Source: Escherichia coli (GTDB taxonomy: Bacteria > Pseudomonadota > Gammaproteobacteria > Enterobacterales > Enterobacteriaceae). From it: a DNA stretch of 31,100 nucleotides. Shown here in pieces: positions 1 to 30,909 of the stretch. Position 1 is the stretch's first letter; each line of letters opens with the position of its first letter. The notes beneath the pieces were generated by a model. That model was given only the letters and a program-made list of their open reading frames with translations, had not been told where the DNA came from and ran no database searches. The position numbers and the translations under genes were made by a program. The stretch lies in NCBI RefSeq assembly GCF_003334765.1, contig NZ_QOWT01000040.1; one strand, written 5' to 3'.

Positions 1-106
1 AAATCGGCTCAAACATGAAGAAATGAAATGACTGAGTCAGCCGAGAAGTATTTCCCCGCTTATTCGCACCTTCCTTAGTCGCGCGCTGAATGGAATTTAC
101 GCCTCT

Positions 107-487
107 TTGGAAACATCTGATTGGGGAATAATGAAGTTATTTGAGGATTTAGCATATAGAAATTATAAGTCAAGCGCATGGTCCGCTATGCTAAGAAATA
201 AATTAAGATTGAGAATGGACGATAAGCTTGATGAAAAGATAATTTCAATAATTAATGAGAAAGAGCTTGGTAAAAAGTTTTATAGAATTGACAGAGATCG
301 TTTGTTATCGTTAATGTTAGATTATAATATTGATATACCAATTAATCTTAATAATATAATTTACCTTTGTAATTATTTTTTCATAAAATCTACGGAGCTT
401 CAGGATATAGCCCCTGCTTTAATAATGAAAAAGCTTACAGATGCTGATGAAAAATTCAATAAAAATACTATTTTAGCATCTAAATAA
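107..487 (+). CDS. Hypothetical protein, low-GC orphan (TTG start at 107; first ATG at 131)
   Basis: 126-aa ORF from the six-frame track; AT-rich; no recognisable motif; convergent with the recombinase/ParB operon; followed by the 505-534 hairpin. Confidence 0.4.
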   Translation: METSDWGIMKLFEDLAYRNYKSSAWSAMLRNKLRLRMDDKLDEKIISIINEKELGKKFYRIDRDRLLSLMLDYNIDIPINLNNIIYLCNYFFIKSTELQDIAPALIMKKLTDADEKFNKNTILASK

Positions 488-504
488 TAACTATCTCCGG
501 CTAT

Positions 505-534
505 TAAGTAGGCCTTGTATTTTAGGCCTACTTA
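505..534. repeat. Perfect 10-bp stem hairpin (taagtaggcc / ggcctactta, 10-nt loop)
   Basis: Inverted repeat read directly from the sequence, 18 bp after the ORF 107-487 stop. No U-tract follows on either strand, so it is not a canonical intrinsic terminator. Confidence 0.5.
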
Positions 535-866
535 AAAAGTTTCATTATGTGAAGTGATGATGATAGCAAATCTGATATCTTTATGGTTGGATGCGAGAAA
601 ATATTTTTATCCCGACACAACAACTGGTAATGATAGAAAATTTAAACCCAAAAATGCTACAGTAGCCTCAGCTCACAAACGGAGTATAAAGTGGCGGTTA
701 CTCTTTAGTGGGAATACTGTAGATAGTTGATAAACTGGGCTGGATTTTCTTTTCTAACCGAAGGGAAGAAAAGCAAGGGGAACCCAAAGAAACAAGCGCA
801 GCGGCTTCGTAGGGTTAGCCCTTGCTTCTTTTATAATTGGCATTATTCATTCAAGAACAATAGGAT

Positions 867-886
867 CTTCGCTTGTACAAGCGAAG
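867..886. repeat. Perfect 20-bp palindrome CTTCGCTTGTACAAGCGAAG
   Basis: The sequence equals its own reverse complement. Lies in the AT-rich non-coding stretch of the island. Confidence 0.7.
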
Positions 887-1005
887 CTATAATAAAAAAT
901 CAATTAATTATTTTAAAAGTATTAAGCAAGAGCCTATTGACATTCGTAAAATAAAAGTTATTTTTAATGTATGCCATAAATAAAAAGTTTTATGTCATAT
1001 GTATC

Positions 1006-1020
1006 CTGCACTATGTGCAG
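1006..1020. repeat. Inverted repeat CTGCAC-TAT-GTGCAG
   Basis: 6-bp arms with a 3-bp spacer, read directly from the sequence. Confidence 0.5.
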
Positions 1021-1036
1021 TTAATGTGCCACTTGT

Positions 1037-1048
1037 CCCATATATGGG
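1037..1048. repeat. Perfect 12-bp palindrome CCCATATATGGG
   Basis: Self-complementary sequence read directly; 17 bp from the 1006-1020 repeat. Confidence 0.55.
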
Positions 1049-1539
1049 AATATTGGAAAGGTTACTTTGTTTTGAAGTAGCCTTTCGTCCTTCAATATTC
1101 ACGATTACTTATTGCTATTACCAAGTCCAGTCGAATCGAAGAACATCTTTTATCTGAAACGACTCCTAATACCAGGTTGAAGCCACAATATCTCTCGCAT
1201 AAGTAGACCAAAGAAAAATTATGATATTAACTATGTGATTTTTTTTAGTGTTAAGTTGAATAATTATATACTGGAGAGTTTTCTGTACACTACCAATTGC
1301 TGGTTCATCTGTTCTGCCGCTGATGTTTCTGACTAATCTCCCGGTGACACAGAACTGTCCCTCTCTACCAGCCTTTATTCGACTCAATGTCCGGCTGCTG
1401 ATACGCAGTTATCCCTTCGTATCAATGACTGACTCTTAAACGCAATGCTTTGGTTGCTGGCGTATCTGACAGCTTCTTCGGCGTGAAGGTCGTTGTGTAA
1501 GTATACTTCTTGGTTTATTTAGGCTATATAAAACCATGA

Positions 1540-2436
1540 CTATGACTGGCTGTTTTCAGTAAGAGTCTTATCATCCAAAGAATTTATTCTAGAAATTCTT
1601 TTTAACTCATTAAGATAATCAACCTCGTTTTCTAAGAACCAATGAAGAACTTTAGAGTTGCCAAGTAATTTATTAATATATGACTGGATTATAACGAATT
1701 TCAACATATCTGAACCATACTCGGTTTGAAGTTTTTTCGTTTCTTCCGAAGTTGTTGCCATTTCTTGTTCCAGACGAAGTATGGTTTTTTTTATGTCCTT
1801 TTTATAGGGAGTGTTTTTCCCTTTATTTACTATCATCGATGACGGTGTTGCATCCAAGATGCTCATTGCAAATTTTTTACTATAATTATCAAAATTAATC
1901 ATTGTACCGACTGCTTCAATTTGACGAATTGGCTTCATTTTCCTCAAAACGTCAAATGTAGCCTTAGGTATAGGTTTATCAGAAAGTTTCGCAATTACAC
2001 TTGGATCTATGCCGTTCATCACATTAGCTTTATCTTTTATGGCATCAACAGATATGCCCAAAGCAGCACTAAGTTTTTCAATTGATACTTTTGCCAGAGA
2101 CTTAATTATCATTCTATGTTCTTCAACTACATTTATATGATTCACTTGTTTGTTAGGAGTGAAAGCATCATCTATGCTCGAAAGTATACATGGAGCTTTT
2201 TCTATATCTAAGTCTTTTAAAGCCTCAACCCTTAAATGGCCATCAAGTATCTTAGTGACATCTTTATCTTTGTCATAGAATACTATTATTGGTTCAATAA
2301 TACCCAAGCTTTCGATAGAGGTAACTATTTGATGATATTTATGGCTTCGCTTTACGTTTTCTAATAATTCCTTAGATGGAATTAACTTATTAGTTTCCAG
2401 GTAAATAAAATTTTTGCCAAAACGTATCTGAATCAT
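1540..2436 (-). CDS. ParB/Srx-like protein B (298 aa), third gene of the operon
   Basis: ParB-like N-terminal layout (IIEPIIV...ILDGHLRVEAL...APCIL) followed by a helix-turn-helix-like segment (SIEKLSAALGISVDAI). ATG overlaps the stop of the upstream gene by 4 nt (ATGA). Confidence 0.6.
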   Translation of the reverse strand: MIQIRFGKNFIYLETNKLIPSKELLENVKRSHKYHQIVTSIESLGIIEPIIVFYDKDKDVTKILDGHLRVEALKDLDIEKAPCILSSIDDAFTPNKQVNHINVVEEHRMIIKSLAKVSIEKLSAALGISVDAIKDKANVMNGIDPSVIAKLSDKPIPKATFDVLRKMKPIRQIEAVGTMINFDNYSKKFAMSILDATPSSMIVNKGKNTPYKKDIKKTILRLEQEMATTSEETKKLQTEYGSDMLKFVIIQSYINKLLGNSKVLHWFLENEVDYLNELKRISRINSLDDKTLTENSQS

Positions 2437-3329
2437 TTTGATACCTCTTTGTTTACTGGGTTTAATATCTGAGATGGTAGTTCTGAAAGATTCTCTTGTT
2501 CAAGTATATTTTGAAAGCTTTTATTCATCATTATGATGTTAAAAATCTCATTTATTATTAGTAGATTGGTTTTTATAAATTTCGAGTTGTTATAAACAGA
2601 TTTATGTTCAGCGATACTATTTTCATAAAGCTCAATCAACTCCTCTGCAGTCATCCTTTTTGATGGTTTGTGATAATAAAATCCGGCTGCTTTTGCACCT
2701 TTATTCCCAACTGTTCTTTGATTTAGAATGTATTTTATCTTTATAATGTCCCGACTTTTTATTAATTTTTTATCATATGCTTCGGTAAGAATATCTTGTG
2801 CTTCCTCAGTTTCACATCTTGCAAATTGCACTGCGAGATACAGAGGCAAATTACCCCGTTCGACTGCTGAGAGAAGTTTATGCTCTCCCTTATCAAGAAG
2901 CATATTAATACTGCTCACCCAGTTCGATGAATATCCAGTAATCTCACTTATTTCGGAGTCTGAAAGTCCTCTGATTTTCATGTCTTTAATCACCTGTAAT
3001 AACTCATTAGAACGTGGTCTTCTCCTTGCAATGTTTTCAACTAAACTCATAACGTAAGCATCTTCTTCTGATACATCTCTTATAATTGCTGGAATAATAG
3101 TTTCACCTAATGCAACAAGAGCCTCTATTCTCCCTTGACCACAAATTAAAGCATATTTGAAATCGTCTTCATCAATAGCTCTTACGCTTATAGGCTTGCT
3201 TAATCCTCTTTTTTTTATGCTTTCCTTTATTTCTTCATGCACTACCTTATTTCTTGTTCGTGGGTTAAGAAATTTTATTTTTGCAATCTCAATTTGAATT
3301 ATTGGGAATTCATTTTTTTCAGGCAGCAT
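2433..3329 (-). CDS. ParB/Srx-like protein A (298 aa), second gene of the operon
   Basis: Close positional match to ParB/Spo0J N-terminal domain plus HTH: PISVRAI...ICGQGRIEAL...IPAIIRDVSEEDAYVMSLVENIARR...LSDSEISEITGYSSNWVSSINMLL. GAGGG Shine-Dalgarno 7 nt upstream; start overlaps the recombinase stop by 11 nt. Confidence 0.65.
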   Translation of the reverse strand: MLPEKNEFPIIQIEIAKIKFLNPRTRNKVVHEEIKESIKKRGLSKPISVRAIDEDDFKYALICGQGRIEALVALGETIIPAIIRDVSEEDAYVMSLVENIARRRPRSNELLQVIKDMKIRGLSDSEISEITGYSSNWVSSINMLLDKGEHKLLSAVERGNLPLYLAVQFARCETEEAQDILTEAYDKKLIKSRDIIKIKYILNQRTVGNKGAKAAGFYYHKPSKRMTAEELIELYENSIAEHKSVYNNSKFIKTNLLIINEIFNIIMMNKSFQNILEQENLSELPSQILNPVNKEVSK

Positions 3330-4875
3330 ATAGTTCCCTCACTTTCATGCGAGTAATAATTTGTAGAAATTTATCAAGATTATCAAATCTATAGAGATCT
3401 AACCGAATGTTGTTTGTTTCCATCATACACATTTTACTATATTCGTTTTCAATCTTTGGTATGATATAAAAATCAAGAGGTGAAATATTTTGTGAATTCA
3501 TTCGTATAACAATTGTTATGTCTGCTTTCTGTGAGTTATCAAACCGGACTTTCCATCTAAGTTTACCTGATTTCATATGTATGCATTTAGTAACAAGGAC
3601 GGAAATTAAAAACTCATCATTGATGTAAAGCATTGGGTAATATTTATACTCGTCTATATGACAGTTACTTTTTAATATTTCGCCCTTAAAATCCTCAATT
3701 ATCTCTGAGTAAAATGATCTTAGTGCTTCATTTATTTGGAGATAGCTGTAATCATGTTCTGGCTTATAACCAATCAAAGTATATGCTCTTAAAAGACCAC
3801 CAAATCGGGTTCTATAAACAGAAGATGAAGGGCCTGTATCATCTTCATCAATGATAAAGCCTGATAGTTTTCCATTAGATTCTAATTTTTCTTTTAGCTT
3901 TTCTAATAGATCTTCATTAGTCAAATGAATGGATCGGAGCTGAATTATTTCTTGAGCTTTATTATATTTTTTCTTTGAAATAATTGGTTTATATGCCTTG
4001 TCACATCTAATCCATTCATGTTTGGGGTTTTTTACAAGCTTACTTTTTAGTTTAGATGAGGTTTTGTTATATATGTTGTTTCCAATATATTTTTCATTTG
4101 TCAAAATTTGATGTATTTTTGCACGAGTCCATGATGTTCCATTTTCTGCAGGTATGCTCTGTTCATTTAATCTCTCAGCAATAATGAATTCTGGGACGTT
4201 ACTATCTATAAAGAGATCATAGATTCTATTTACAATTTTTATTTCATTTTTTGGTCCCGGAATTAATATTACCCTATCTGTTTGAATACTCTTTCTTTTG
4301 CGGAAATTCAATATTTCTTTAGCTATGCCATTTTCGTCTACTAAAAGACGTCTCAGCCCATAACCAGCCATACCGCCTTGATGATAACCAAGCTTTATTA
4401 AATTTACTTGCCCTATAAATACCTTTTCAGATAGATTCCTGCTGTGATATGCAGCACTTGATCTTTTTATATTCAGTATAACAGAGGACTCTAAAGGGAA
4501 ATCTTTAGTGGGTATAGGTTCGGAACAATATATAAGATCTACACCATTTCTTTCAAATAGAAAGGAATAATATGCAGCTTCATCACTATTTTGAAAACGA
4601 CCAAAACGGCTCACATCATAAAATAATACAGCCTGTATATCTATTTTCTTTTGTTCTACATCGCTAAGTAACTGCTGCAAAGAATGCCTGCCTACGATAC
4701 TGACTCCGCTCTTACCTGCATCATCGTAGGTATAAGCGATTTCCATATTGTTCTTTTCAGCATAATCTTTGATATATTCAGACTGATTATGTAAAGAATA
4801 TTGCTGATGGTCGGTAGACATCCTCAAGTACTGTGCGACCCTAACTCTATGATTTTTTTCATTTCCGCTAGCCAT
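3319..4875 (-). CDS. Large serine recombinase-like protein (about 518 aa; track ORF starts at TTG 4881, first ATG at 4875)
   Basis: Resolvase-type catalytic domain motifs in the right order: YLRMSTDHQ (presumed nucleophile Ser), DDAGKSG, RHSLQQLL, VSRFGR. Then a recombinase-domain signature: GGMAGYGL ... WTRAKIHQILTNEKYIGN. GAGG Shine-Dalgarno upstream of the ATG. Confidence 0.7.
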   Translation of the reverse strand: MASGNEKNHRVRVAQYLRMSTDHQQYSLHNQSEYIKDYAEKNNMEIAYTYDDAGKSGVSIVGRHSLQQLLSDVEQKKIDIQAVLFYDVSRFGRFQNSDEAAYYSFLFERNGVDLIYCSEPIPTKDFPLESSVILNIKRSSAAYHSRNLSEKVFIGQVNLIKLGYHQGGMAGYGLRRLLVDENGIAKEILNFRKRKSIQTDRVILIPGPKNEIKIVNRIYDLFIDSNVPEFIIAERLNEQSIPAENGTSWTRAKIHQILTNEKYIGNNIYNKTSSKLKSKLVKNPKHEWIRCDKAYKPIISKKKYNKAQEIIQLRSIHLTNEDLLEKLKEKLESNGKLSGFIIDEDDTGPSSSVYRTRFGGLLRAYTLIGYKPEHDYSYLQINEALRSFYSEIIEDFKGEILKSNCHIDEYKYYPMLYINDEFLISVLVTKCIHMKSGKLRWKVRFDNSQKADITIVIRMNSQNISPLDFYIIPKIENEYSKMCMMETNNIRLDLYRFDNLDKFLQIITRMKVRELYAA

Positions 4876-5157
4876 GCACAAAACCTCATGGATGATTCAA
4901 TACAATGTAGAGGATAAAATTGATCAAATTTTAACCGAATTCAACTGTTTTATCATTGATTAGAGCGAATTTGGTAGTTCTTCGAGGTGTATGATAATCG
5001 AGAAGAGATGTGAATTATTTAGCTGATATGACCGACAGCTTTCGTTATGTGGCCTCAAGGTACCCATTTGTAAATGGCTATGCTTAGTCCACATAGGTTA
5101 ATGGTGTGATCATTAATTCTTCAAATAAATCAAGATAGTTAACCCATCATGGAAGAG

Positions 5158-6387
5158 TTATGCGGCAATAACTTTGTATTTTTGAGACGAAACATAGTCA
5201 CTCCACCATTGCATGAGAACCACACGTTCTGTGAGATACTCTGCACGATTGTAGGCTGCAATTATTTCATCTTTTTTCGAGTGGGCAAGGGCGGCTTCTA
5301 AGACATCAGTTCTAAACTTGCCACACTCCTCAGCCGCCGTTCTAGCGATTGATCGCATACCATGAGCTACAAGCTCACCTCCGAAGCCCATACGGATTAT
5401 AGCCGCATTAGCTGTTTGTTCATGCATGTGATTGAGTGGAGCTTTGATACTGGGAAAAACCCACTCTCTATGCCCGCTGATGGCTTTCATTGAATCCAAG
5501 ACTCGCAAAGATTCTTTGCTCAGTGGAACTTTGTGAGGCTTCTTCATTTTCATAAACTCCGCCGGGATGTTCCACATGCTGGTTTCTATATCAATATCTG
5601 ACCATCTTGTGCGAACAGCTTCACCAGGGCGAACCCATGTGAGAAGTTGCCACTCAATCAGTAGCCTTGTTTCTAAACGGATAGAAGCATTGTTTAGAGC
5701 AACCAGGAAGCGGGGGAGTTCGGAAGGGGGTAATGCTGGCATATTCTGTTTTTTTGGCTTGCTGAACCGTTGCCCCAGGTTGTCAGCCGGATTGAATTCT
5801 ATGAGTTCTTCTGTTGCTGCATAGCGGAAAATTTCATTCAGGCGGGATATGACGCGGCGAAGTGTTTCAAGGACACCTCGTTTTTCTATGGGGTCTAAAT
5901 GCTGTTTAAGCATTTTAGGGCGAATCTCCTTAATGGGGGTATCACCCAACGTTGGAAAGATATTTCTCTCTAGGCTTCGCCAGATGTCGTTAGCATGATC
6001 CTGGGAGATGCCTGACGTTTTGACTTTCTCATCAAGCCACTTCTTGGCTACTGCTTGAAATGTATGTTCCGTTGCATCCTTAAGGGCATTGGCTTTGTGG
6101 GTGTTATGAATTTGTGGGTCTATACCATTTGCAAGCAACGACAAGTACTCATCACGTAAAGCTCGTGCCTTCGCAAGTGTAAGGTGAGGATAGGTTCCTA
6201 AGCTCACCTTAGTTCGCTTTTTGGTCACAGGCACTGCATATCTGAAATACCAATTTTTCTTTCCTCCCTTCGCTAAGGGGGCGATTCGCAGGAGCAAACC
6301 ATCGCCGTCAAAAAGGTTAACCTCTTTCTCGGCAGGTTTGGTGCTTTTGATTTCAGTGTCAGTGAGCTTCTTAGCGATTTTTGCCAT
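5158..6387 (-). CDS. P4-family tyrosine integrase (409 aa from MAKIAKKLTDTEIK; the track ORF extends upstream to 6531)
   Basis: N-terminus typical of P4/CP4-57-type integrases; C-terminal tyrosine recombinase motifs (HGMRSIARTAAE ... AHSKKDEIIAAYNRAEY); sits directly beside the ssrA 3' end. Confidence 0.85.
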   Translation of the reverse strand: MAKIAKKLTDTEIKSTKPAEKEVNLFDGDGLLLRIAPLAKGGKKNWYFRYAVPVTKKRTKVSLGTYPHLTLAKARALRDEYLSLLANGIDPQIHNTHKANALKDATEHTFQAVAKKWLDEKVKTSGISQDHANDIWRSLERNIFPTLGDTPIKEIRPKMLKQHLDPIEKRGVLETLRRVISRLNEIFRYAATEELIEFNPADNLGQRFSKPKKQNMPALPPSELPRFLVALNNASIRLETRLLIEWQLLTWVRPGEAVRTRWSDIDIETSMWNIPAEFMKMKKPHKVPLSKESLRVLDSMKAISGHREWVFPSIKAPLNHMHEQTANAAIIRMGFGGELVAHGMRSIARTAAEECGKFRTDVLEAALAHSKKDEIIAAYNRAEYLTERVVLMQWWSDYVSSQKYKVIAA

Positions 6388-6553
6388 GTTTGGGACCCTC
6401 ATGTTTTGGACCCTTTGTGTTGGGTCCCAAAAAGGGTGCCATAACGAGTAGATTCTAGCAATTCTCGGTAGACTACTATAGACGTAAAAAAGCCCGCAAG
6501 GCTGGTTCCATGCGGGCTTGATAGACTTCACTGAACTTCAATATATCAAAAAT

Positions 6554-6916
6554 TGGTGGAGCTGGCGGGAGTTGAACCCGCGTCCGAAATTCCTACATCC
6601 TCGGTACTACATGCTTAGTCAGTCTTTACATTCGCTTGCCAGCTGCGGACGGACACGCCACTAACAAACTAGCCTGATTAAGTTTTAACGCTTCAACCCC
6701 AGGCAGGGCTTCCACGCGATCTCTTTTGGGTTTGACCTCTCTTGATCCCCGTCCTAAGAGCGGAGGCTAGGGAGAGAGGGCTCTAAGCAGGTTATTAAGC
6801 TGCTAAAGCGTAGTTTTCGTCGTTTGCGACTATTTTTTGCGGCTTTTTACGAGGCCAACCGCCCCTCGGCATGCACCTTGGGTTTCGCAAATCCCGTCGA
6901 ATCCAGAATCAGCCCC
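6554..6916 (-). ncRNA. ssrA: tmRNA (SsrA), 363 nt
   Basis: Reverse complement reads GGGGCTGATTCTGGATTCGACGGGATTTGCGAAACCC ... GGGTTCAACTCCCGCCAGCTCCACCA, i.e. the tRNA-like 5' and 3' ends of tmRNA including the CCA end. Confidence 0.92.
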
Positions 6917-12448: not shown

Positions 12449-13711
12449 TTACTCCGCCACACTCTCGCGCAGCGGTTTCACAGGAAAAACTTTTACCTGC
12501 TTAATCATATTGTCCTGTACGTCGAGAATATCGATATCGTACTCGCCAATACGCACGCGGGTGCCTGCGACAGGGATCTCTTCCAGTGCCTCAAGAATGA
12601 CGCCATTAACCGTGCGGGCATCATCTTCCGGTAGATGCCAGTTAAAGGCTTTGTTGATTTCCCGCACGTTGGCGGTGCCATCGATAATCACCGAACCGTC
12701 GTTTTGCGGCGTGACCTCTTCGGCAAGTGTTGGCGACATCGACGTAGTGAAATCGCCGACAATCTCTTCCAGAATATCTTCAACCGTCACCAGCCCCTGA
12801 ATGTCTCCATACTCGTTGACGACCAGGCCGACTTTCTTTTTGTTGCGCTGAAACTTTACCAACTGCGTGCTGAGCGGCGTACCTTCCGGCACAAAATAGA
12901 TCTCGTCCGCGGCGCGCAGCATGGTTTCTTTGGTGAACTCTTTTTTCTCCGACATCAACCGCCAGGCTTCACGTACTCGCAGCATACTGATGGCGTCGTC
13001 CAGCGAATCACGGTAGAGCACGATGCGCCCGTGAGGTGAGTGGGAGAGTTGGCGCAGAATCGATTTCCAGTCATCGTTGATATCAATACCGATAATTTCA
13101 CTGCGCGGCACCATGATGTCATCAACGGTCATTTTTTCCAGATCGAGCACCGACAGCAGCATATCCTGATTGCGACGGGAAATTTGTGAGCGTGATTCGT
13201 GCACGATAGTGCGCAACTCTTCTTTGCTCAAAGAGCCGCTAACCACGATATCGGTTTTGATACCCATCATGCGCATCAGCATACGGGTGATAGCATTCAG
13301 CAACCAGACCAGCGGCATCATCAAAATTTGCAGCGGAGCCAGCAGAAAACTACTCGGATAAGCGACTTTTTCCGGGTACAGCGCGGCAATGGTTTTCGGC
13401 AATACCTCAGCAAATACCAGTACGACAAAAGTCAGCACACCAGTCGCAATTGCCACGCCCGCATCGCCGTACAAACGCATCCCAACAATAGTGCCGAGCG
13501 CGGAGGCAAGAATATTGACCAGGTTATTGCCGATTAACACCAGGCTTATCAGGCGGTCTGGCTTACGCAGCAATTTTTCGACGCGTTTGGCCGAGCGATT
13601 ACCCTGTTTCGCCATATGTCGCAGACGATAGCGGTTGAGGGTCATCATTCCGGTTTCGGACCCGGAAAAATAGGCTGAAATGACCACCATGATGATCAGA
13701 ATAATGATCAA
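12449..13711 (-). CDS. corB: CNNM-family inner membrane protein CorB/YfjD (DUF21-CBS-CorC_HlyC); start uncertain by a few codons
   Basis: Recognised translation and synteny. The track ORF begins at a TTG; the in-frame upstream extension (EHISTTT) has no ATG, so the true start is unresolved. Confidence 0.8.
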   Translation of the reverse strand: MIIILIIMVVISAYFSGSETGMMTLNRYRLRHMAKQGNRSAKRVEKLLRKPDRLISLVLIGNNLVNILASALGTIVGMRLYGDAGVAIATGVLTFVVLVFAEVLPKTIAALYPEKVAYPSSFLLAPLQILMMPLVWLLNAITRMLMRMMGIKTDIVVSGSLSKEELRTIVHESRSQISRRNQDMLLSVLDLEKMTVDDIMVPRSEIIGIDINDDWKSILRQLSHSPHGRIVLYRDSLDDAISMLRVREAWRLMSEKKEFTKETMLRAADEIYFVPEGTPLSTQLVKFQRNKKKVGLVVNEYGDIQGLVTVEDILEEIVGDFTTSMSPTLAEEVTPQNDGSVIIDGTANVREINKAFNWHLPEDDARTVNGVILEALEEIPVAGTRVRIGEYDIDILDVQDNMIKQVKVFPVKPLRESVAE

Positions 13712-24764: not shown

Positions 24765-24786
24765 AGTGTTGCCTTTTTGTTATCAA

Positions 24787-24817
24787 TAAAAAAGGCCCCC
24801 CGATTTGGGAGGCCTTA
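24787..24817 (-). terminator. pheA attenuator terminator
   Basis: Minus strand reads AAGGCCTCCCAAATCGGGGGGCCTTTTTTATTG between pheL and pheA. Confidence 0.8.
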
Positions 24818-24862
24818 TTGTTCGTCTTCGCATTCTGTTTCACACGACGAAACGCCTCCCAT

Positions 24863-24910
24863 TCAGGGGAAGGTAAAAAAGAATGCGAAGAAAAACGGTA
24901 TGTGTTTCAT
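24863..24910 (-). CDS. pheL: pheA leader peptide PheL (15 aa, [15 protein letters not shown])
   Basis: Reverse complement reads ATGAAACACATACCGTTTTTCTTCGCATTCTTTTTTACCTTCCCCTGA; Phe-rich leader. Confidence 0.85.
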
Positions 24911-24965
24911 GTTTGTTTCCTTAAGTGACTTTAGTACAGTACCCGTACTGTTTTCACGCTGTCAA

Positions 24966-28206: not shown

Positions 28207-28268
28207 CCTAAAGAATCAAGACGATCCGGTACGCGTGATTTTCTTTTCACATTAATCTGGTCAATAAC

Positions 28269-28297
28269 CTTGAATAATTGAGGGATGACCTCATTTA
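28269..28297 (+). promoter_or_regulatory. Sigma-32 heat-shock promoter of clpB
   Basis: CTTGAA, spacer of about 14 bp, CCTCATTTA, about 40 bp upstream of the clpB ATG. Confidence 0.65.
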
Positions 28298-28335
28298 ATC
28301 TCCAGTAGCAACTTTGATCCGTTATGGGAGGAGTT

Positions 28336-30909
28336 ATGCGTCTGGATCGTCTTACTAATAAATTCCAGCTTGCTCTTGCCGATGCCCAATCACTTGCACT
28401 CGGGCACGACAACCAATTTATCGAACCACTTCATTTAATGAGCGCCCTGCTGAATCAGGAAGGGGGTTCGGTTAGTCCTTTATTAACATCCGCTGGCATA
28501 AATGCTGGCCAGTTGCGCACAGATATCAATCAGGCATTAAATCGTTTACCGCAGGTTGAAGGTACTGGTGGTGATGTCCAGCCATCACAGGATCTGGTGC
28601 GCGTTCTTAATCTTTGCGACAAGCTGGCGCAAAAACGTGGTGATAACTTTATCTCGTCAGAACTGTTCGTTCTGGCGGCACTTGAGTCTCGCGGCACGCT
28701 GGCCGACATCCTGAAAGCAGCAGGGGCGACCACCGCCAACATTACTCAAGCGATTGAACAAATGCGTGGAGGTGAAAGCGTGAACGATCAAGGTGCTGAA
28801 GACCAACGTCAGGCTTTGAAAAAATATACCATCGACCTTACCGAACGAGCCGAACAGGGCAAACTCGATCCGGTGATTGGTCGTGATGAAGAAATTCGCC
28901 GTACCATTCAGGTGCTGCAACGTCGTACTAAAAATAACCCGGTACTGATTGGTGAACCCGGCGTCGGTAAAACTGCCATCGTTGAAGGTCTGGCGCAGCG
29001 TATTATCAACGGCGAAGTGCCGGAAGGGTTGAAAGGCCGCCGGGTACTGGCGCTGGATATGGGCGCGCTGGTGGCTGGGGCGAAATATCGCGGTGAGTTT
29101 GAAGAACGTTTAAAAGGCGTGCTTAACGATCTTGCCAAACAGGAAGGCAACGTCATCCTATTTATCGACGAATTACATACCATGGTCGGCGCGGGTAAAG
29201 CCGATGGCGCAATGGACGCCGGAAACATGCTGAAACCGGCGCTGGCGCGTGGTGAATTGCACTGCGTAGGTGCCACGACGCTTGACGAATATCGCCAGTA
29301 CATTGAAAAAGATGCTGCGCTGGAACGTCGTTTCCAGAAAGTGTTTGTTGCCGAGCCTTCTGTTGAAGATACCATTGCGATTCTGCGTGGCCTGAAAGAA
29401 CGTTACGAATTGCACCACCATGTGCAAATTACTGACCCGGCAATTGTTGCAGCGGCGACGTTGTCTCATCGCTACATTGCTGACCGTCAGCTGCCGGATA
29501 AAGCCATCGACCTGATCGATGAAGCAGCATCCAGCATTCGTATGCAGATTGACTCAAAACCAGAAGAACTCGACCGACTCGATCGTCGTATCATCCAGCT
29601 CAAACTGGAACAACAGGCGTTAATGAAAGAGTCTGATGAAGCCAGTAAAAAACGTCTGGATATGCTCAACGAAGAACTGAGCGACAAAGAACGTCAGTAC
29701 TCCGAGTTAGAAGAAGAGTGGAAAGCAGAGAAGGCATCGCTTTCTGGTACGCAGACCATTAAAGCGGAACTGGAACAGGCGAAAATCGCTATTGAACAGG
29801 CTCGCCGTGTGGGGGACCTGGCGCGGATGTCTGAACTGCAATACGGCAAAATCCCGGAACTGGAAAAGCAACTGGAAGCCGCAACGCAGCTCGAAGGCAA
29901 AACTATGCGTCTGTTGCGTAATAAAGTGACCGACGCCGAAATTGCTGAAGTGCTGGCGCGTTGGACGGGGATTCCGGTTTCTCGCATGATGGAAAGCGAG
30001 CGCGAAAAACTGCTGCGTATGGAGCAAGAACTGCACCATCGCGTAATTGGTCAGAACGAAGCGGTTGATGCGGTATCTAACGCTATTCGTCGTAGCCGTG
30101 CGGGGCTGGCGGATCCAAATCGCCCGATTGGTTCATTCCTGTTCCTCGGCCCAACTGGTGTGGGGAAAACAGAGCTTTGTAAGGCGCTGGCGAACTTTAT
30201 GTTTGATAGCGACGAGGCGATGGTCCGTATCGATATGTCCGAGTTTATGGAGAAACACTCGGTGTCTCGTTTGGTTGGTGCGCCTCCGGGATATGTCGGT
30301 TATGAAGAAGGTGGCTACCTGACCGAAGCGGTGCGTCGTCGTCCGTATTCCGTCATCCTGCTGGATGAAGTGGAAAAAGCGCATCCGGATGTCTTCAACA
30401 TTCTGTTGCAGGTACTGGATGATGGGCGTCTGACTGACGGGCAAGGGAGAACGGTCGACTTCCGTAATACGGTCGTCATTATGACCTCTAACCTCGGTTC
30501 CGATCTGATTCAGGAACGCTTCGGTGAACTGGATTATGCGCACATGAAAGAGCTGGTGCTCGGTGTGGTAAGCCATAACTTCCGTCCGGAATTCATTAAC
30601 CGTATCGATGAAGTGGTGGTCTTCCATCCGCTGGGTGAACAGCACATTGCCTCGATTGCGCAGATTCAGTTGAAACGTCTGTACAAACGTCTGGAAGAAC
30701 GTGGTTATGAAATCCACATTTCTGACGAGGCGCTGAAACTGCTGAGCGAGAACGGTTACGATCCGGTCTATGGTGCACGTCCTCTGAAACGTGCAATTCA
30801 GCAGCAGATCGAAAACCCGCTGGCACAGCAAATACTGTCTGGTGAATTGGTTCCGGGTAAAGTGATTCGCCTGGAAGTTAATGAAGACCGGATTGTCGCC
30901 GTCCAGTAA
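28336..30909 (+). CDS. clpB: Chaperone ClpB (857 aa from [10 protein letters not shown])
   Basis: Two AAA+ modules ([16 protein letters not shown]); the track ORF extends 4 codons upstream to 28324. Confidence 0.95.

Follow-up and report, generated by a model that had tools for sequence, protein, structure and literature searches.

The gene ssrA, which encodes transfer-messenger RNA (tmRNA), is defence hotspot #9 of Escherichia coli, where prophages, P4-like satellites, integrative mobilisable elements (IMEs) and transposons can all be found (Hochhauser et al., 2023, PMC10121019). The present work concerns a 31,100-nt stretch of E. coli DNA (contig NZ_QOWT01000040.1; hereafter the window), of which positions 1-6553 constitute the integrase-proximal arm of an AT-rich, horizontally acquired, non-phage island in the 3' end of ssrA. 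As an island it is an ordinary occupant of the published tmRNA hotspot, non-phage integrative elements being already known there (PMC10121019), and follow-up interest lies in the cassette beside its integrase rather than in the island itself. This cassette, referred to below as the triad, consists of the gene of a large serine recombinase followed by those of two ParB-like proteins, ParB-A and ParB-B. The triad is a widespread, uncharacterised three-gene module with an unusual combination of domains; it is unnamed, the defence databases searched contain no model of it, and the full-text literature searched yielded no description of the recombinase/ParB-A/ParB-B combination. The reading favoured here, to which a probability of about 0.3-0.4 is assigned, is that the triad is a DNA-targeting conflict module acting in defence or exclusion; the explanation as a whole, in which this role is taken together with the identity of the island and the constancy of its core, is given about even odds.

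Among described islands, the closest is CP4-57 of strain K-12 (intA to ypjF), with which the present island has in common the site in the ssrA 3' end, a degenerate far repeat (psaA in K-12) and an AlpA-type excisionase. With CP4-57 and other ssrA elements carrying a P4-family integrase it also shares a homologous integrase (~79% DNA identity) and variable, defence-rich cargo. Unlike CP4-57, it harbors neither the DUF3987 primase-like gene yfjI nor the CP4-57 genes, a relaxase gene being found instead, and the gene adjacent to the integrase belongs to the triad, whereas it is yfjH or alpA in CP4-57.

For the triad itself, the closest described system is found in the ssrA islands of Dehalococcoides, in which a 540-aa CcrB-like serine recombinase, a ParBc protein and a tRNA-like RNA belong to an integration module; its full set comprises DsiB, DsiA, a RecF-like protein, the ParBc protein, Mom and the embedded tRNA-like RNA (McMurdie et al., 2011, PMC3146451). 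Both modules lie at ssrA, both combine in one operon a CcrB-related recombinase of ~520-540 aa (that of the triad being likened to DsiB by description) with a ParB-domain protein, and both can be associated with a conserved structured RNA, for the triad only in its non-enterobacterial versions. The triad differs in having two ParB_N + RepB proteins, in the lack of a DsiA, RecF-like or Mom gene, and in a recombinase gene that does not overlap the attachment (att) site, a separate tyrosine integrase being present. It also resembles the defence systems of islands, such as PARIS, Gabija, type I restriction-modification (R-M), SoFic and Azaca, in being a compact operon of patchy distribution and recent horizontal spread, placed with defence neighbours in a cargo slot beside an integrase or tniQ. 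Unlike these systems, it is in E. coli constant, not variable, relative to the integrase.

The recombinase and its ParB-like partners

An earlier note on this DNA had the integrase followed directly by a recombinase/ParB operon, and this arrangement holds: the three genes lie on the minus strand and overlap, the recombinase and ParB-A genes by 11 nt and the ParB-A and ParB-B genes by 4 nt. The recombinase has the resolvase catalytic domain followed by a "Recombinase" domain that is typical of the large serine recombinases (the phiC31, Bxb1, A118 and SPbeta SprA integrases, TnpX and CcrB), and its residues R18, S20, D87, R90 and R93, corresponding to the catalytic Arg, Ser, Asp, Arg and Arg, are invariant. 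It also matches PHROG 95 "integrase" (234 bits) and, distantly, CcrB. Unlike the large serine recombinases, it has no identifiable zinc-ribbon/coiled-coil, with neither a zinc-ribbon match nor a conserved Cys cluster; beyond the Recombinase domain there is instead a helical segment resembling the homing-endonuclease-associated repeat and then a predicted C-terminal PD-(D/E)xK-like domain, residues 313-518 being modelled as this helical segment and a PD-(D/E)xK-like beta-rich domain. A Foldseek search of AFDB50 brought up nothing beyond the recombinase's own family, a profile search of the PDB with the C-terminal domain gave no match, and PDB sequence searches gave generic ParB and resolvase domains only. 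A further difference from the large serine recombinases is that this enzyme is always co-encoded with two ParB-like proteins. At three loci, a solitary second recombinase paralogue can be found on the opposite strand near the triad (L019 5792-7477, minus strand; L046 13447-15057, minus strand; L070); these paralogues score 540-570 bits on the family hidden Markov model and have no ParB genes of their own.

The two ParB-like proteins are related to the ParB clamps that depend on cytidine triphosphate (CTP), i.e., Spo0J/ParB, Noc and KorB, and Spo0J, Noc and KorB are also the relatives of ParB-A in the PDB. The N-terminal part of ParB-A has equivalents of boxes I to III followed by a helix-turn-helix (HTH) region, and its CTPase-type motifs NPR, GQGR and VENxARR are conserved in an alignment of 79 homologues against Spo0J. 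In ParB-B the N-terminal motifs are degenerate in an alignment of 76 homologues: DGHxR is kept, ENxxR is lost, and the protein has a motif of its own, FTYNKRVNR. Judged by these sequences, the clamp motifs (box I xPR, box II GxxR, box III ENxxR) would be complete in ParB-A and not in ParB-B. The triad differs from Spo0J, Noc and KorB in several ways: there is no ParA; the subunits are two paralogues, one of them degenerate, which are occasionally fused; a RepB-type C-terminal domain is present; the partner enzyme is a recombinase; and CTP binding is only predicted. No ParA/RepA ATPase gene was found in the operon, in the E. coli islands or among the recurrent neighbour families of 83 loci. The fusion of ParB-A and ParB-B in a single 594-aa open reading frame (ORF) can be seen at L006 (7545-9329), on a plasmid-labelled, GC-rich record that is a putative plasmid and is probably mis-assigned to Lactiplantibacillus. 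Such occasional fusion of both proteins supports a ParB-A/ParB-B heterodimer by the Rosetta-stone argument.

Distribution of the triad and its associated elements

Among 5,426 complete E. coli genomes, 655 (~12%) possess the triad, BL21 included, and it is always single-copy, chromosomal and in one place. It stands beside one of two alleles of the present integrase in 604 E. coli genomes. Integrase and triad form a constant core, while the cargo behind them varies between strains and genera: NACHT and RelA/SpoT genes in the present lineage; a type I R-M system in YD786, representing the major lineage with most E. coli; Mrr/ScoMcrA-type HNH genes, or ABC ATPase and ThiF genes, in Klebsiella; HNH_5, DUF5677 and DUF6602 genes in Salmonella, beside a P2-like prophage in tandem at ssrA; and Gabija in Enterobacter. 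In BL21/T7Express (L094 13249-19721), the ssrA island is cut down to the integrase and the triad by a deletion associated with the insertion sequence (IS) IS1, so that it abuts glaH, the far arm of the island and the ypjA-ygaQ region being gone. The triad proteins are 95-97% identical across Escherichia, Klebsiella, Enterobacter, Salmonella, Citrobacter and Cronobacter, which argues for recent spread among enteric genera. Between the two E. coli alleles compared, the ratio of nonsynonymous to synonymous polymorphism (pN/pS) of the triad genes is 0.25-0.31, indicating purifying selection.

A scan of one genome per species (GTDB) yielded at least 570 species-level loci, 83 of which were examined for their neighbours. 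Recombinase, ParB-A and ParB-B are encoded in one order on one strand, usually with overlaps, at all of the 80 loci with sufficient contig, and the three-gene order is kept even with distant full-length homologues in which recombinase identity is 44-46%. On the Agrobacterium C58 plasmid pAt, the triad has an AbiEii toxin gene on one side and a Fic gene on the other and is far from repABC, and on a Piscinibacter plasmid it stands directly behind tniQ in a Tn7-like element. The cassette is thus autonomous and conserved across Proteobacteria, and is horizontally mobile as a unit; it can be found on chromosomes, on plasmids and in at least one Tn7-like transposon.

Full-length homologues occur on 65 plasmid records, including plasmids of Agrobacterium (pAt), Sphingobium and Burkholderia, and both ParB-like proteins have the C-terminal domain of RepB plasmid-partition proteins. 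These observations could be accounted for by a plasmid-type stabilisation cassette, combining multimer resolution with centromere-like binding, which came from large plasmids and has little current function in the chromosome. Such an origin is unlikely: most matches are chromosomal, as are all 655 E. coli copies, the ParA/RepA ATPase is missing from the operon and from its recurrent neighbours, and the recombinase is of the large, 518-aa type and not a small resolvase. Moreover, the pAt cassette is remote from repABC and adjoins AbiEii and Fic, and the purifying selection between the two E. coli alleles does not agree with little current function.

Two further elements can be found in association with the triad. 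Just upstream of the recombinase gene and divergent from it, 28 of the 83 loci have a gene of ~120 aa that encodes an HTH-like motif (RWTGASERTAKNWLSG...GPSGEHL). Its product is likely an operon regulator, so that the cassette would often be tightly regulated outside E. coli; in E. coli (4876-5157) the gene is absent, and the family has no NCBIfam or PADLOC match. The second element was found by a k-mer survey as a strongly conserved non-coding element 20-67 nt past the ParB-B stop codon in many non-enterobacterial, mostly alphaproteobacterial loci. Its consensus has 106 positions and five helices with 27 pairs, and 99.1% of the cells are paired, a value which drops to ~40% when the partners are slid. 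Compensatory changes are seen at 7 pairs, as compared with 2.4 +/- 1.0 in shuffles, none of 500 shuffles reaching the observed number, and the structure is assigned to the sense strand of the operon because G-U pairs are frequent. With a covariance model applied to 89 sources, it was recovered at 35 of the 83 triad loci; every copy is on the sense strand, and nearly all follow ParB-B directly. When metagenomes were scanned independently, a ParB-B end was present less than 200 nt upstream in 98 of 111 informative occurrences, the 13 others being orphans in unrelated contexts. None of the 4,227 covariance models of Rfam 15 gave a match at the gathering score in 7 loci (best E = 9 on the element), and the RNA is absent from the E. 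coli window, where the best hit with filters off was 3.1 bits (E = 6.5). On the evidence of covariation the 106-nt element is a new structured RNA motif, which could act as a cofactor, a regulatory 3' untranslated region or a processing element.

The flanks of the triad bear on whether it serves the mobility or maintenance of the element that carries it. The recombinase would then integrate, excise or resolve the element or a sub-element, and the ParB-like pair would handle the excised circle, through site recognition, directionality control or segregation, as may be compared with DsiB/DsiA/ParBc of Dehalococcoides and CcrAB of SCCmec. The enzyme is indeed of the integrase/transposase class (Resolvase and Recombinase domains, the PHROG 95 and distant CcrB matches), the E. 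coli triad is strictly linked to one integrase lineage next to the att site, and of the 83 loci 6 have a P4-type integrase gene no more than 7 kb away and 11 have a tRNA gene no more than 9 kb away. The conserved structured RNA behind the triad in many taxa and the Dehalococcoides precedent of serine recombinase, ParBc protein and tRNA-like RNA (PMC3146451) point the same way. Against this, most loci have no integrase or tRNA gene nearby, and in the 655 E. coli genomes the triad is in single copy at a single site and never plasmid-borne. A complete tyrosine integrase separates the recombinase gene from the att site, so that the recombinase is not at the island end, and no zinc-ribbon/coiled-coil, by which known serine integrases control synapsis, could be identified. 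Around the E. coli operon, searches for flanking repeats and palindromes gave chance-level AT-rich matches only, with no att-like repeats. In Rhodobacterales, a 4.07-kb unit of regulator and triad is common to genomes whose left and right flanks have been reshuffled independently; it ends in terminator-like hairpins, and its inner ends are not mutually symmetric, unlike the halves of attP. Overall, a mobility or maintenance role is the chief alternative to the reading favoured here, possible and yet doubtful. That the triad might, more narrowly, be a self-mobile mini-element is unlikely, considering its one copy at one site in E. coli and the terminator-like ends without attP symmetry in Rhodobacterales.

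A possible role in genetic conflict

The favoured reading, a conflict module, can be laid out as a sequence of proposed steps. In a proposed heterodimer of both ParB-like proteins, CTP-dependent clamping and scanning of DNA would be the task of ParB-A, and ParB-B would be its degenerate partner. Once loaded on particular DNA, the heterodimer would bring in or license the recombinase, whose serine active site, possibly together with the PD-(D/E)xK-like tail, would break or rearrange the targeted DNA. Integration and excision of the island would be carried out by the tyrosine integrase and AlpA and not by the triad. A more specific version, put forward tentatively, is that of a novel conflict system in which a heterodimeric ParB clamp scans DNA and steers a serine recombinase with a restriction-endonuclease-like domain onto invading DNA, which would be broken or rearranged, many alphaproteobacterial versions having a regulator and an RNA cofactor and BL21 having a minimal, RNA-less one. 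Consistent with a conflict module are the invariant catalytic residues, the purifying selection, the defence neighbours, the divergent regulator and the near-absence of the triad from phage genomes, as well as the PD-(D/E)xK-like fold and the CTPase motifs of ParB-A.

With regard to the neighbours, a recognised defence gene can be found within 5-7 kb of the triad in at least 33 of the 83 loci (~40%), and defence neighbours are present in all enterobacterial islands examined; the other loci have diverse and mostly unrecognised neighbours, their annotation being incomplete. Those confirmed by PADLOC are SoFic (12 loci), DrmD and DrmA of DISARM type, Azaca ZacABC, type I R-M, ThsB, a Mokosh-like helicase and Gabija, and AbiEi-like, HipA-like and WYL genes recur as well. 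When the longest neighbour was surveyed with PADLOC in 30 further loci, 3 defence matches and 2 TnsB matches were obtained.

Several points weigh against a conflict role. The other 25 of these 30 longest neighbours have no defence or transposon match, and the association with defence neighbours is moderate, being also expected for any gene of a mobile island. The tie of the triad to one integrase lineage in 604 E. coli genomes fits a role in the island backbone equally well. Unlike the island defence systems, the triad has no system model in PADLOC-DB 2.0.0, in which the recombinase and ParB-A match no family and the one match of ParB-B, to a methyltransferase model, is weak and due to the ParB domain. 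The canonical (D/E)xK triad was not identified in the PD-(D/E)xK-like domain of the recombinase, the related Dehalococcoides set of recombinase, ParBc protein and RNA is described as an integration module (PMC3146451), and the conflict role has been reached by inference.

Serine recombinases, PD-(D/E)xK-like domains and paired ParB-like proteins, which the triad unites, are not known to act in concert, and to our knowledge no defence system based on a serine recombinase is known. Should the triad serve defence or exclusion, bacterial immunity would gain recombinase chemistry and ParB clamps; as a mobility module, the triad would represent a new class of serine-recombinase element. Both outcomes are directly testable in standard E. 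coli strains, BL21 being a ready test bed.

The island at ssrA and its other features

The island was inserted into the 3' end of ssrA by a tyrosine integrase of the P4 family, with the same site and the same kind of degenerate repeat as in CP4-57 of K-12. Its guanine-plus-cytosine (GC) content is 0.31-0.35 across positions 1-5000, except in one 500-bp bin at 0.40, and rises to ~0.50 right of ssrA, where smpB, ratA, yfjF and bamE are located. Positions 73-6553 are found as identical DNA in many complete genomes, and the island could be extended by means of the near-identical islands of strains H3 (L001) and NCTC9041 (L093). As the earlier note had anticipated, the far boundary of the source strain's own island lies beyond the window, and it is seen only in these relatives, from which all far-end data come. 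The second copy of the ssrA 3' end, which the note had expected an extension to reveal, is present in H3 as the degenerate sequence TGGTGGGCTGGCG, exactly at the position of psaA (CP4-57 attR) in K-12. This far repeat covers 13 nt with one indel and was recovered by alignment against K-12, whereas exact k-mers of at least 12 nt gave no match. The coordinates of all these features are given in Table 1.

Table 1. Positions of the triad, the island features and the elements associated with the triad at other loci
Feature	Source	Positions	Strand	Basis or remark
Large serine recombinase, 518 aa	Window	3319-4875	-	Resolvase PF00239, 1.4e-21; Recombinase PF07508, 1.1e-21
ParB-A, ParB_N + RepB-C, 298 aa	Window	2433-3329	-	Pfam; TIGR00180, 61.7 bits, above cut-off
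ParB-B, ParB_N + RepB-C, 298 aa	Window	1540-2436	-	Pfam; PHROG 31451, unknown function
P4-family (IntA-like) tyrosine integrase, 409 aa, intact	Window	5158-6387	-	NCBIfam NF007246; PHROG 1 integrase
Interval between integrase stop and recombinase start, 282 bp	Window	4876-5157		Presumed operon promoter
ssrA (tmRNA)	Window	6554-6916	-	Full length, ARAGORN; Rfam 295.8 bits, gathering score 47
Integrase-proximal att core (ssrA 3' end)	Window	6554 to ~6567		TGGTGGAGCTGGCG on + strand; compared with K-12 attL/psaA and the far end in H3
Spacer without credible ORF	Window	488-1539		IS3-family transposase fragment at ~1355-1466 (RefSeq)
RelA/SpoT-domain gene, 3' remnant (residues 165-301 of 301)	Window	74-487	+	Identical to L001 20001-20415, WP_000282312.1
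IS5, terminal 74 bp	Window	1-74		98.6% identical to positions 74-1 of IS5A of K-12; remainder left of the window
Divergent HTH-like gene, example	L030	8475-8858	-
Divergent HTH-like gene, example	L003	5532-5939	-
Triad-associated RNA, example	L023	12379-12484		32 further loci besides the three examples
Triad-associated RNA, example	L067	5002-5106
Triad-associated RNA, example	L018	12302-12406

In the relatives, the island is ~24 kb long and bounded by ssrA and the degenerate ssrA repeat. Its cargo comprises a relaxase/mobilisation nuclease, an AlpA-like excisionase (PHROG 66, 2790), ankyrin, DUF4928 and DUF6387 genes, copies of IS3 and IS66, and a NACHT gene followed by a RelA/SpoT gene. Relaxase, integrase and excisionase genes, the combination expected of an IME, are thus found together in the H3 and NCTC9041 islands, and are not seen together within the source window; by its gene content, the ~24-kb island looks like a decayed IME.

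A decayed prophage or P4-like satellite, with the operon as one of its normal components, would be the obvious alternative given that the integrase is of the P4 family, that the P4-like cryptic prophage CP4-57 occupies the identical site in K-12 and that PHROG families match both ParB-like proteins. Nevertheless, phage structural and replication genes, reported as missing already in the earlier note, and lysis genes are found neither in positions 1-6553 nor in the full H3 and NCTC9041 islands, where capsid, tail and lysis genes as well as the primase (DUF3987), psu, sid and delta are lacking. None of the P4 hallmarks (alpha primase/helicase DUF3987/D5, psu, sid, delta, cos) is annotated in the islands of H3, NCTC9041 and YD786, and PHROG scans of the unnamed proteins of the islands yielded the excisionase only. 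Among 50,697 phage records, a full-length triad homologue was found in a single unverified 7.4-kb contig. Nor was the operon found to be a known part of a prophage or satellite, as there is no PADLOC match and the PHROG families matched by the ParB-like proteins are of unknown function. The prophage or satellite that the earlier note had named as the finding that would overturn its view was therefore looked for in the extended islands without success, these being devoid of phage and P4-satellite hallmarks, and with the hallmark genes absent and the triad nearly so from phage records this alternative is rejected as very improbable.

The integrase and ssrA are both intact, as previously noted, and so is attL. 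Excision, which the note had proposed, may still be possible, an AlpA-like excisionase being encoded in the relatives; this is tempered by the IS insertions in the island, by a far end known from relatives only, and by the IS1-associated loss of the far arm in BL21. The integrase scores 444.3 bits against NF007246 (cut-off 434) over model positions 1-395 of 413, its translation shows the R...HxxR...Y residues, and its pN/pS against the BL21 allele is 0.10. A GTG-initiated ORF reaching 6531 is an over-extension of this gene. In the presumed promoter interval, promoter matches are of consensus level only and not above the shuffled expectation, and a terminator scan around the E. coli operon was likewise at the shuffled expectation.

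At the left end, the "orphan ORF" (107-487) of the earlier note proved to be no orphan but the 3' part of a RelA/SpoT-domain gene that has been truncated by insertion of IS5 at TTAG. This insertion is present in none of the 5,426 complete E. coli genomes, all alignments beginning at position 73. The 301-aa protein is intact in strains H3 and NCTC9041 and has weak matches to the NCBIfam GTP diphosphokinase and to PADLOC PDC-S33. In intact islands its gene is the second of a pair encoding a NACHT protein (701 aa) and the RelA/SpoT protein (NCTC9041, L093 8990-12000), for which no PADLOC system match was obtained, the only matches being weak ones to PDC-S33 and to HalA-like proteins. The pair, inactivated by IS5 in the source strain and by IS66 in H3, may constitute an uncharacterised defence pair of the nucleotide-binding leucine-rich repeat (NLR) type.

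Between this remnant and the triad, the DNA described earlier as non-coding does lack a credible ORF, but it contains a fragment of an IS3-family transposase gene. The spacer has no Rfam match and no match to the model of the triad-associated RNA. Its gene-less part at 747-1539 (~790 bp), with a GC content of 0.40, above that of the operon, accompanies the triad, 96.6% identical, in most E. coli islands; neither an RNA family nor a repeat was detected in it.

In Enterobacter asburiae (L011), a 262-bp copy of the integrase 3' end (13433-13694), 78.6% identical to positions 5139-5400 of the source, is located ~100 bp after ParB-B and ahead of the Gabija system. This copy suggests tandem accretion of islands followed by deletion, a possible route of cargo swapping.

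On the other side of the integrase, a sub-threshold Rfam match to the small RNA (sRNA) IsrM (6486-6563, minus strand; 42 bits, gathering score 376) covers the spacer between integrase and ssrA; it is probably sequence shared by att flanks and not an sRNA gene. Right of the island, a Phe leader (24786-24911, minus strand) and the sRNA RyfD (28217-28355, plus strand), both above their Rfam gathering scores, are RNAs of the core genome.

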